DNA from: an uncultured Myxococcales bacterium
GTDB taxonomy: Bacteria > Myxococcota > UBA727 > JABDBI01
Reading direction: 5' to 3'
Length of the DNA: 64,000 bases
Assembly (NCBI GenBank): GCA_964493205.1
Contig: CAZBMJ010000002.1
Span: 50,238 to 114,237 of the forward strand
Shown: positions 8,067 to 15,104 of the stretch, in pieces
How positions within the stretch are numbered: the stretch's first letter is position 1
How the letters are laid out: every line of letters begins with the position of its first letter
The notes under the pieces: generated by a model
The model's database searches: none
What the model was told of the DNA's origin: nothing
Seen by the model: only the letters and a program-made list of their open reading frames with translations
Position numbers and translations under genes: made by a program

Positions 8067-8315
8067 TTACCACCACCAAGAATTTAATATTGTATTAATA
8101 TTTAAGTTTATAATATCTATACTATTAATATTACCTATATATTCATATCTATTATAGTTAGTATTGTACATTATTTTATTATCTTTAGTAAATTTACTAC
8201 CATAATAATCTTGAAAGGCATATACATTACGATTTATTATATAAATAATAGCAGGTTTATTTTTATAAATAACTTCTTTTAAATGAAGATCCTTTGTTAA
8301 TTCTACCACCACCAA
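8067..8315 (-). CDS. WWW-terminated small protein, member A. The translation initiates at a non-ATG codon.
   Basis: Ends NSWWW-TAA. The ORF-caller start is TTG. No in-frame ATG precedes the family-conserved segment IYIINRNVYAFQDYYG. Confidence 0.5.
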   Translation of the reverse strand: MVVVELTKDLHLKEVIYKNKPAIIYIINRNVYAFQDYYGSKFTKDNKIMYNTNYNRYEYIGNINSIDIINLNINTILNSWWW

Positions 8316-8623
8316 TCATTTAGTTTTGTTAATAATTCAATATATCTTATATTATTAGGCACAAGTTCATAAGAATATTCATAGTTATATTTTTTATACA
8401 TTTTCTCACTATCTTGATTACCTTCTCGTTCATTTTGGAAAATAAACCATCTTCTACAAGATTTATCATAATATAACAATCCTTCGACCTTTGTTAGCTT
8501 ACTTGTTAATACTCCTATAATACAAGATACTGTAGACAAATGATTTTCTATAGTTAAATCTTTAAATTCCATAAGTAAAAATTTAAAATAAAAAAGACCC
8601 TCTGTTACGAGGGCCTTTTTCAT
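8303..8623 (-). CDS. WWW-terminated small protein, member B. The likely start is the internal Met at ~8572.
   Basis: Ends NDWWW-TAG. Contains YYDKSCRRWFIFQNE. The first 17 codons coincide with the upstream terminator hairpin. Confidence 0.5.
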   Translation of the reverse strand: MKKALVTEGLFYFKFLLMEFKDLTIENHLSTVSCIIGVLTSKLTKVEGLLYYDKSCRRWFIFQNEREGNQDSEKMYKKYNYEYSYELVPNNIRYIELLTKLNDWWW

Positions 8624-8626
8624 TTG
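8596..8626 (-). terminator. Rho-independent terminator downstream of gene 8629..9120
   Basis: Minus-strand RNA reads GGCCCUC-GUAACA-GAGGGUC followed by UUUUUUAUUUU. Confidence 0.7.
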
Positions 8627-8628
8627 GA

Positions 8629-9120
8629 TTATTTAATGTAATCTTGTGATTTCTCCATGATTTTAGCAAGAGAATCTTTAATACGTTGCTCTTTACTTAC
8701 ATGTTCACTAAGCTCAGCTATAGCATTTTCAAGCTGTTTAATTTGTGCTGTATTGATTACACTGTTTATGGCTTTATCAATTACTTTGCTCCAATGTTCT
8801 ACAGGTTTTTCTGCTATAGTAAAAGGAGCAATTTTAAGACCTTGAAGGTTATATCGTGTAATTTCATTAGCATATGCATCTCCTTGTGCGTGAATAGATG
8901 ATGATATTTGCAACAATTCTGTTACAGAAGTTATATCTTTTATTGTTTTACCGTTGAATTTAATATCAAGGGATACTGTGTCATCAACATCACCTTTTAA
9001 TGATTTAAGTTGAGCTTTTAACTGCTCGATCACTGCACCAACCTCTTTAGCTGATGTAGGAATAGTAATTTCACCTGCTGCAGATGCTTTTGCTACTGCT
9101 GTTGTTTTAGGTCTAGCCAT
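8629..9120 (-). CDS. Hypothetical Ala/Lys-rich protein (163 aa). Its composition is atypical for this genome.
   Basis: MARPKTTAVAKASAAGEITIP... is GC-richer than its neighbours. It is followed by a strong terminator, which suggests high expression. Confidence 0.5.
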   Translation of the reverse strand: MARPKTTAVAKASAAGEITIPTSAKEVGAVIEQLKAQLKSLKGDVDDTVSLDIKFNGKTIKDITSVTELLQISSSIHAQGDAYANEITRYNLQGLKIAPFTIAEKPVEHWSKVIDKAINSVINTAQIKQLENAIAELSEHVSKEQRIKDSLAKIMEKSQDYIK

Positions 9121-9152
9121 TTGTTTTTTTAAATTAAAAATGTTAATAAAAA

Positions 9153-9476
9153 TTATTCTTCTTCTTCTCTACTCCAGAACGTGCGTTGGTAATGAGCTAT
9201 TTTTACTGCTGTCTGGAAGCCCTTTTCAGGACCATCTATAAATTTTATTATCCACCATTGATAATTATAAAGTATTTGTACTTTGTCTTGTATACGCTTA
9301 GGATTATTTTCTCCACGTTCTACAAATTCATAAGTACGTTGATCATAAGGTGGCTCTCGATTCTCTAATCTTTTCAACAATATAGCATTACCTCTAAATT
9401 GTTGTTGTTTTTGCCAATTTAAAAAAATAGGCAGAATATTACCTTCTTTAAGGTTCTTTTTTAATATTTTATGCAT
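9153..9476 (-). CDS. Hypothetical protein (107 aa)
   Basis: Complete ORF. No recognisable motif. Confidence 0.45.
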   Translation of the reverse strand: MHKILKKNLKEGNILPIFLNWQKQQQFRGNAILLKRLENREPPYDQRTYEFVERGENNPKRIQDKVQILYNYQWWIIKFIDGPEKGFQTAVKIAHYQRTFWSREEEE

Positions 9477-9495
9477 TTTTATTTATTTTAATTTA

Positions 9496-13870: not shown

Positions 13871-13896
13871 CTTGTTTGTTTTTTTTGTTAATTAAT

Positions 13897-14127
13897 TTAC
13901 CACCACCATAGTGATTCTATTTCATAAAGTTTTATTTCTTTACCTTTATATTCACTTTTAATAGCATTTCTAATTATATTATTAATTATACCATAATAAC
14001 TTTCTACGTTACTTCCTTCAAGACAATGCTCATTTGAATATCCTAAACTTATAAACCATTCTATTATTTGCTTACCATGTTTGATAGATAAACATTTTAT
14101 ATAATTATCTTCCATTACCACCACCAA
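13897..14127 (-). CDS. WWW-terminated small protein, member D. The true start is probably ATG at 14115-14113.
   Basis: Ends SLWWW-TAA. Contains CLSIKHGKQIIEWFISLGY. The TAATG junction overlaps the stop of upstream member E. Confidence 0.5.
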   Translation of the reverse strand: MVVVMEDNYIKCLSIKHGKQIIEWFISLGYSNEHCLEGSNVESYYGIINNIIRNAIKSEYKGKEIKLYEIESLWWW

Positions 14128-14348
14128 TTTTTTTTATTATTTAAAATATCTTCTATTTTTATTTCTTTATAATCACTTGGTGCATAAAAATGATTTTGAA
14201 TATACTTATTATAGAAATTCATATAATAAACCTTATTTTTATCTTTTCCTTTAGTGTTATATCGGTTACGTCCACCTAAATTACATAAATACTTTATTAT
14301 ATGTTCACCATAGTCTGGATTACCACGTATGAATACTTTATTTAGCAT
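14115..14348 (-). CDS. WWW-terminated small protein, member E
   Basis: Ends KKNWWW-TAA. Contains IIKYLCNLGG. Confidence 0.5.
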   Translation of the reverse strand: MLNKVFIRGNPDYGEHIIKYLCNLGGRNRYNTKGKDKNKVYYMNFYNKYIQNHFYAPSDYKEIKIEDILNNKKNWWW

Positions 14349-14621
14349 AAGATAGATATGTTTTCATAATTCCATTTTTATCTTTTTCTGTTCTTAGAAA
14401 TGCACTTACTATTATACCACCTTTAGTATAATCTTTAACCATTATTTGTACTATATTAATTTGATTGAAAGTTAATAAATATCCTTTTTTCAGAAGGAAA
14501 ATAAATAAATAATTTTTGAGCTACTCTTCTTGCTATTTTAACACTTCTTATTATTGCTAATTCTTTATTATCTGTTTTAGGACGTTGTAATTCTATTAAC
14601 ATATTTTAAATTTAAAGATAA

Positions 14622-14697
14622 GGGCAAGTAATGAGATTTGAACTCATGACCTCTTGAATCACAATCAAGCACTCTAACCAACTGAGCTATACTTACC
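14622..14697 (-). tRNA. tRNA-His (anticodon GTG) with a genomically encoded G-1
   Basis: Minus strand reads G(-1)GTAAGTA-TA-GCTC-AGTTGGTTA-GAGT-G-CTTGA-TTGTGAT-TCAAG-AGGTC-ATGAG-TTCAAAT-CTCAT-TACTTGC-C73. All four arms pair. G-1 pairs with C73, which is the His identity element. Confidence 0.85.
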
Positions 14698-14702
14698 ATA
14701 TA

Positions 14703-15104
14703 TTACCACCACCAAAATTGTTCTTCTGGTAATGTTATTATTTGTGCATTTGCATTTTTTATATCATTTATATTATAAATATTAAACTCTCCATTTATTA
14801 CTCCATAATATTTATAAATTGAATTCTTATATGCTATACCTTCAAAATGACTTTTATAAAATCCTAAAGATTTAAAATATTCTAATATTTTTTTACCTTG
14901 TTTTAAATTTAAACACTCTATTGCTATATTGTTCATTTTAAGATGTTTTTTATCTATAACTATCCAATTCAAATCATCAATATCATGTAATGATGCTTCA
15001 TATATAGTATTACTATTTTTATCTAGTATTTTATCTCCTAATTTTGTAGACTGATATTGTATTAGATATTCAACATCATCAATTATTATTCTATCTAAAA
15101 TCAT
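14703..15104 (-). CDS. WWW-terminated small protein, member F
   Basis: Ends EEQFWWW-TAA. Contains CLNLKQGKKILEYFKSLGF, the CLxxKxGKxIxE(W/Y)FxSLG motif shared with member D. Confidence 0.5.
   Translation of the reverse strand: MILDRIIIDDVEYLIQYQSTKLGDKILDKNSNTIYEASLHDIDDLNWIVIDKKHLKMNNIAIECLNLKQGKKILEYFKSLGFYKSHFEGIAYKNSIYKYYGVINGEFNIYNINDIKNANAQIITLPEEQFWWW

Follow-up and report, generated by a model that had tools for sequence, protein, structure and literature searches.

The window examined here, a stretch of 64,000 nucleotides (nt) from contig CAZBMJ010000002.1 (positions 50,238 to 114,237), carries on its minus strand six small open reading frames (ORFs), A to F, each of which ends in three tryptophan codons followed by a stop (WWW-stop). 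The original prediction, made from the letters alone, had listed six such ORFs, and all six are present with that ending. The window is that of a crAss-like phage: a protein of 512 amino acids (aa) encoded at 39899-41437 matches the Pfam family Crass_capsid (E 8e-41), and the GC content is 28%. The nearest cultured relatives are Flavobacterium psychrophilum phages of the FpV4 type, at 28% identity, so that a Bacteroidota host is plausible. The WWW genes lie in a minus-strand arm of small early/replication-type genes, and in crAss-like phages small early genes are, to our knowledge, mostly without a known function.

Results

Six small genes end in three tryptophan codons

The motif CCACCACCA occurs six times on the plus strand of the 64 kb (at 8070, 8306, 9499, 13900, 14118 and 14706), against an expectation of 0.10 from 100 dinucleotide-preserving shuffles, in which the maximum was two copies and none (0/100) reached six. 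Every copy is in frame and forms the final three sense codons of an ORF (6/6). Since tryptophan makes up 1.15% of the residues in the long ORFs, simple arithmetic puts the chance of a C-terminal WWW at about 1.5e-6 per ORF. Among the other ORFs of the window, none of at least 50 aa ends in W or has WW within its last eight residues, and none of at least 40 aa has a comparable aromatic C-terminus (two aromatics plus Trp). The stop itself varies, being TAA in four genes (A, D, E and F), TAG in B and TGA in C, where TAA follows directly. The coordinates of the six cassettes and of the junctions between them are collected in Table 1.

Table 1. WWW cassettes and their junctions in the window; fold types and start codons are as predicted
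Feature	Position	Strand	Description
Cassette A	8067..8315	-	Beta-barrel type, ending NSWWW-TAA; start at TTG 8315 or GTG 8312/8309 inside the WWW codons of B; N-terminus 'MVVVELTK'
Cassette B	8303..8572	-	Beta-barrel type, ending NDWWW-TAG; likely start ATG 8572 (MEFKDL); mechanical ORF extends to 8623
Cassette C	9496..9741	-	Beta-barrel type, singleton, ending LTWWW-TGA-TAA
Cassette D	13897..14115	-	Alpha/beta type, ending SLWWW-TAA; ATG 14115 overlaps the stop of E; P0003, 72 aa
Cassette E	14115..14348	-	Alpha/beta type, ending KNWWW-TAA; P0005
Cassette F	14703..15104	-	Alpha/beta domain from Met57 (14936), ending QFWWW-TAA; tRNA-His 6 nt downstream
B/A junction, T-TGG-TGG-TGG-TAG	8303..8315	-	WWW-stop of B plus TTG-GTG-GTG-GTA of A in the -1 frame; left breakpoint of the replacement relative to L007
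WWW-stop of A	8067..8079	-	Right breakpoint of the cassette replacement relative to L007
E/D junction, AAT-TGG-TGG-TGG-TAATG	14115..14130	-	In L001, two extra cassettes between two direct motif copies

For B, the ORF and its ending stand as first described (8303..8623), and only the start probably needs to be moved. A terminator-like hairpin on the minus strand (8586-8625; GGCCCTC gtaaca GAGGGTC, then a T-run), directly after the gene for a 163-aa protein, lies within codons 1-17 of the long B ORF, so that translation probably begins at ATG 8572. It may also be that the transcript ends or pauses at this hairpin, just upstream of the B-A pair.

Two unrelated protein types carry the same ending

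The six ORFs had been taken for paralogues in two subfamilies. The two groups are there, but they are unrelated to each other. A, B and C can be aligned with one another (HL..v.C, ..Y, [YF]xFQ[ND], YNY) and D, E and F form a second alignable group, whereas hhalign matched the two profiles over their last 10 columns only, at a probability of 14%, which rules out a single family for all six. Of the motifs proposed for the groups, YxFQ(N/D) marks A, B and C as alignable but is not kept to the letter in B, which reads F-I-F-Q-N, while the longer motif given for D, E and F holds for D and F and is matched only in part by E. The predicted folds differ too, A, B and C being modelled as small beta-barrels and D, E and F as a small alpha/beta domain. 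For D, AlphaFold2 (AF2) returned a small beta-alpha-beta domain with a predicted local distance difference test score (pLDDT) of 77, falling below 50 at tail residues 65-72 (model m938844c1eacc). In the models of both folds the last 4-8 residues, WWW included, score below 50 on shallow alignments of 8 and 5 sequences, and the linker to the tail is only 1-5 residues long. Because the bodies are unrelated, the WWW tail is shared across families and not inherited within one.

None of the six proteins matched a profile in Pfam or PHROGs at E<0.001, and megablast and tblastn against GenBank phages gave no match. In IMG/VR and the JGI metagenomes no relatives were found of the beta-barrel type, nor of the DUF7788 neighbour described below.

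Ten cassette types are alike only in their last codons

Related contigs are few and come from about five metagenomic samples (L001 and L006 from SRR21677132, L002 and L007 from ERZ27275549, L005 from SRR28640815 and L008 from ERZ28615536). Four further cassette types come from them, each again ending in WWW-stop: new1 and new2, which lie between E and D in L001, and two that follow B in L007, namely P0026 (alpha/beta type) and then a 92-aa ORF (beta-barrel type). This brings the distinct cassette types to ten, in two unrelated domain classes. When the ten ends are aligned, the conserved block is exactly TGGTGGTGG plus a stop (TAA in six, TAG in three, TGA in one); neither the positions from -15 to -1 nor those beyond +10 show conservation, and the residue preceding WWW may be S, D, T, L, N, F or E. 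The constraint therefore acts on the coding sequence, as three Trp codons and any stop, always in frame; a block that matches codon boundaries in this way points to constraint at the coding level and not to a free DNA site. The orthologue of D in L001 ends in WWF, a change from TGG to TTT that requires two base substitutions and keeps an aromatic residue.

The claim that the ending is selected rather than fortuitous is thus borne out by the excess of copies in the window (six against 0.1), by the frame-level constraint over ten cassette types and by the fact that the ORFs stay open. When IMG/VR was scanned for two motifs in tandem (TGGTGGTGGTA, 205-235 nt, TGGTGGTGGTA), more than 120 matches were listed, almost none of them WWW-stop ORFs; we take these to be identical bases in a different reading frame (GGT, giving runs of Gly) and the scan to be uninformative.

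When the alpha/beta domain of D, E and F was searched for exhaustively by profile, 145 proteins came up at E<1e-3, and members of this wider family had no match at curated thresholds in Pfam or PHROGs. The family unit is about 70 residues long ('xvIkvLnxEHGKkvIeYfkSLG...YYGvinG...kIIeLP'); D, E, F, new1, new2 and P0026 belong to it by sequence, and F lies close to the consensus. Elsewhere the unit is tandemly repeated two to six times per polypeptide, or then followed by a second domain of about 80 residues, whereas in the present lineage alone, to which WWW tails are confined among the 145 matches, it forms a stand-alone gene ending in WWW. Comparison of these architectures indicates that the lineage has a single domain plus WWW where its relatives carry another domain. 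That conserved C-terminal domain of about 80 aa ends in '...LrIKK'. Members of the wider family include P0013, P0014, P0016 and P0017, with a further locus at L134 8001-8645. One genomic context that was looked at is a long run of small phage-type ORFs.

The motif is a joint for cassette exchange

Comparison of the window with L007 places the replacement of cassettes. On the left, identity is 99.75% up to window position 8300, just past the stop of B; on the right it is 100% from 8079, one base before the TGGTGGTGG of A, and stays so across the GIY-YIG gene. The segment enclosed by the two flanks is cassette A (220 nt) in the window and a pair of unrelated cassettes (478 nt) in L007. Relative to L001, new1 and new2 together (475 nt) are a presence/absence difference between two direct copies of the motif, and in L008 the cassette after P0036 is truncated. 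The motif is therefore the joint for the gain, loss and exchange of cassettes. Its role as the boundary of insertion, deletion and replacement between related phages was overlooked in the original prediction.

Starts inside the motif

The overlapping two-gene arrangement reported for B-A and E-D is confirmed, as is the overlap of the E stop with the D start as TAATG. The following ORF of an array is in the -1 frame and runs through the motif as [T/A]TG-GTG-GTG-GTA. Across the TGG-TGG-TGG-TAG of B, A reads TTG-GTG-GTG-GTA-GAA in that frame, in keeping with the earlier suggestion that A has no nearby ATG and uses a non-ATG start within the WWW codons of B. The same applies to new2, P0026 and the 92-aa ORF: none has a nearby ATG past the motif, and like A they would begin 'MVVV' ('MVV' if a GTG start is used). 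Public gene calls place the start of A (P0012) at the first GTG, and a fragment of an A orthologue, 'LVVVELTKDLHLKEV', is found in L006. D starts at an ATG just past the motif, and new1 probably does likewise. The overlap thus reads as an ordinary stop/start overlap, that is, as putative translational coupling.

Other ideas were set aside on inspection. A -1 ribosomal frameshift fusing neighbouring cassettes is unlikely because T-TGG-TGG-TGG is not of the slippery form X XXY YYZ, and tRNA-Trp is unable to re-pair on TTG or GTG. Recoding of the stop by readthrough of TAG or TGA would add only 2-6 residues. A Shine-Dalgarno role for GGTGGTGG does not fit the distances to the downstream starts, which are 0-3 nt or more than 20 nt.

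The WWW genes evolve rapidly

Compared with their orthologues on the related contigs and pooled, the WWW genes show a proportion of nonsynonymous differences (pN) of 0.112 and of synonymous differences (pS) of 0.117, a ratio of 0.95. The corresponding values for the neighbouring 107-aa, 163-aa and DUF7788 genes are 0.017 and 0.098, a ratio of 0.18, so that the WWW proteins change about 6.5 times faster at similar synonymous divergence. With the observed substitutions placed at random, the joint probability that the orthologue pairs of D, F, B and C would all escape a stop codon is only 1.7e-4; the genes are therefore real and not decaying. The amino-acid changes are patchy. Between the F orthologues (window 14703-14860 against L002 and L001) amino acids differ only within residues 84-125, the first 83 residues being identical, and a similar patch lies at residues 18-26 of B. 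Such patchiness would fit local hypervariability or mosaic gene conversion better than uniform drift.

Neighbouring genes and other features

The WWW genes have as neighbours two GIY-YIG endonuclease genes, a gene for a DUF7788 protein, one for a weakly methyltransferase-like protein and a tRNA-His gene. The GIY-YIG genes (5053-6186 and 7345-8040, minus strand; Pfam E about 1e-9) bracket a 385-aa ORF (6191-7348) without a Pfam match. The second of them lies 26 nt downstream of A, in the flank that is 100% identical in L007 where the adjoining cassettes differ.

The label Ro60-like, first given to the 556-aa neighbour, is not confirmed: its only match is to Pfam DUF7788, at residues 343-523, and comparison at the level of sequence gave no TROVE-domain match in Pfam and no match in the PDB. 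Beside its gene lies a gene-poor stretch of about 1.4 kb (10815-12200) with a single ORF of 77 aa, in which no Y-RNA-like or other non-coding RNA was found at Rfam gathering thresholds. The stretch contains three copies of TTGCTGTAA (at 11331, 11742 and 11878), and a fourth, at 13858, overlaps the start codon region of the DUF7788 gene; the window as a whole holds five copies against about one expected.

At the F end of the locus the L001 orthologue of F is a stand-alone domain of 77 aa that lacks the 56-aa N-terminal extension. When window 14937-15643 is set against L001 1249-2245, the extension and the adjoining methyltransferase-like gene (177 aa, 15110-15643) are both missing from L001, and the homologue of 227 aa further upstream in L001 has a different C-terminus, a further indel in the region. 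A tRNA-His(GTG) gene follows the stop of F by 6 nt in both (window 14622-14696, L001 2252-2325). The two tRNAs differ widely in D-arm, anticodon stem and T-arm (75 versus 74 nt) despite flanking genes that are about 90% identical.

Discussion

We have described a WWW ending that is real and is annotated in none of the libraries searched. The reading that we favour, with a confidence that stops somewhat short of even, is that diverse accessory domains share WWW as a C-terminal tail for docking or anchoring, recombination and translational coupling being its consequences. On this reading the six ORFs are real protein-coding accessory genes of the early/replication arm, built on two unrelated small domains, and the tail would direct many rapidly diversifying small domains to one common partner, which could be a protein pocket or possibly a membrane interface. 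As tryptophan has a single codon, a conserved WWW-stop necessarily produces an identical direct repeat of 10-12 nt at the end of each cassette, and no separate selection at the DNA level is needed for that repeat. The repeat, in turn, would supply both the microhomology for cassette shuffling and the overlapping stop and start for translational coupling. What argues for docking is the presence of identical tails on unrelated bodies, their position at the extreme end, the aromatic residue kept in WWF and the accessory, arms-race-like evolution of the bodies.

Several points count against a docking tail. The low pLDDT of the tails is weak evidence for disorder, because the alignments behind the models are shallow. 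Only 1-5 residues separate the last strand or helix from WWW, so that the tail might fold back onto its own domain or promote self-association. WWF is the only informative substitution that separates selection on the residue from selection on the codon. In L005 the first Trp codon of new2 has changed from TGG to TAG and the tail is lost, so that, unless this is an assembly error, it is sometimes dispensable. The pooled pN/pS ratio near 1 is also expected under relaxed constraint, and the relatives all derive from about five metagenomic samples.

A bolder form of the argument, which we regard as possible but unlikely, would give WWW-stop three jobs as a portable cassette end of 12 nt: it would be a tri-Trp address tag to a single hub, would provide the start codons of the next cassette and would act as the recombination joint that shuffles fast-evolving effectors without an integrase. 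Candidate hubs would include a host machine under attack, the replisome and the capsid interior. No integrase was seen among the 20 proteins scanned, a set that does not exhaust the window.

Three tryptophans might also serve as a C-terminal anchor that holds the small domains at the interface of the cytoplasmic membrane, on its inner face, and in none of the proteins was a signal peptide or transmembrane segment seen by inspection. Tryptophan partitions strongly to membrane interfaces, and oligo-Trp end tags are reported to raise the membrane binding of peptides (PMC13430083). The residues before WWW are however acidic or neutral in several cassettes (ND, SE, DS, EEQF) and not basic, which is unfavourable for anionic bacterial membranes, and no amphipathic helix is evident, although no formal test was made. 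On balance an anchor of this kind seems improbable.

Selection could instead act on translation, a run of Trp codons before the stop making completion of the cassette and the coupled start, or downstream transcription, sensitive to charged tRNA-Trp. A WWW codon run has been shown experimentally to be a sensor of Trp starvation that stalls ribosomes and lowers downstream expression (PMC7755916). In the window runs are placed at stop/start overlaps, all six point along one direction of transcription upstream of replication genes, and no tRNA-Trp is encoded. Yet only B and E have an overlapping next gene, the other four runs (A, C, D and F) having none, and the sequences downstream of the runs are unrelated. 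The sole terminator-like hairpin between 7900 and 15800, the one at 8586-8625, is not downstream of any run. No gene of Trp metabolism appears among 20 neighbouring and structural proteins scanned, and Pfam scans of 10 neighbouring proteins matched only DUF7788, GIY-YIG and, weakly, a methyltransferase, with no link to trp. Nor need a regulatory codon run occupy the exact C-terminus of ten cassette types, and the change to WWF took two base substitutions yet left the residue aromatic. We consider a signal of this type quite improbable.

To a selected DNA motif we assign a similarly small chance. Here TGGTGGTGGTAR would mark out mobile cassettes as their site of recombination or homing, with WWW as its by-product. 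The replacement of A by two cassettes between flanks of 99.75% and 100% identity has its breakpoints at motifs, the 475-nt indel of two cassettes lies between two direct copies, and a GIY-YIG homing endonuclease gene is 26 nt downstream of A; moreover GGTGGTGG, within the motif, would fit the Chi-type pattern GNTGGTGG. A DNA site has, however, no reason to follow the reading frame, and the conserved block is exact to codon boundaries and in every case closes a long ORF in frame, with stop bases that vary. No extended or palindromic site is present, the flanks are not conserved, the motif is missing upstream of the gene that opens each array, and WWF breaks the DNA motif whilst keeping the class of residue. 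The single Trp codon again means that conservation of the protein alone yields the repeat. The original prediction held that loss of the WWW-stop frames from related genomes, or lack of expression, would make the element a nucleotide-level motif rather than a protein tag; such a test cannot separate the two, because the motif is a conserved feature of the frame and a nucleotide-level joint at once.

Bacterial proteases recognise C-termini with exposed hydrophobic or aromatic residues, and WWW could be a degron for rapid proteolysis of early proteins or a self-association tag that clusters the WWW proteins. The genes do lie in an early-type region of small ORFs, and the C-terminal Trp of McdB also tunes condensate formation (PMC11321042). 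A degron has, however, no obvious need for exactly three invariant tryptophans across ten cassette types, and we give these ideas little credence. RiPP precursors (ribosomally synthesised and post-translationally modified peptides) can be dismissed, since the polarity is reversed, with variable folded bodies and an invariant tail, and the neighbours scanned gave no radical S-adenosylmethionine (radical-SAM) or cyclase-type match.

The significance of the family is limited for now by its confinement to one narrow, uncultured phage lineage seen in about five samples. Within that lineage a single invariant tail ties together at least ten small genes of two unrelated folds, which offers a single experimental handle on them, and the tail might lead to one target or compartment shared by all these rapidly diversifying phage accessory proteins.

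Shared C-terminal docking tails are familiar from the clamp-binding tails of phage T4 proteins, from encapsulin cargo-loading peptides and from HbYX tails. A published precedent is McdB, whose invariant C-terminal Trp docks to carboxysome shells and can be replaced in part by other aromatics (PMC11321042). As in tails of the McdB type, the WWW cassettes have a very short aromatic motif at the extreme C-terminus of proteins that otherwise differ, with one variant that keeps an aromatic, and the motif may lie outside the fold. They differ from docking-tail systems in having three consecutive tryptophans and nothing else conserved, and in being carried by tiny, fast-evolving, overlapping phage genes; we draw the likeness without claiming membership.

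Runs of Trp codons are known as translational sensors in the WWW motif of Chlamydia YtgCR and the WW of TrpL (PMC7755916). The cassettes recall these in placing three consecutive TGG codons, in an AT-rich genome poor in Trp, ahead of coupled or downstream genes. They depart from them in that the runs are always the last three codons of ten ORFs, with no linked terminator/antiterminator and no trp genes seen.

Cassette systems with repeated ends include integrons, with their attC sites, and the hyperplastic regions of T4-type phages, where promoter-early stem-loop repeats flank mobile ORFs. The present locus resembles both in its arrays of small promoter-less ORFs whose common end sequence bounds presence/absence and replacement polymorphism. 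Unlike theirs, its repeat is only 9-12 nt long and lies within coding sequence, without secondary structure or an extended attC-like palindrome. The WWW ending is a short C-terminal motif on unrelated proteins, with an unusual link to cassette modularity. The locus offers a natural example of how a run of a single-codon residue may give rise to identical DNA repeats and these to shuffling joints, tying a constraint on protein to the modularity of a genome.

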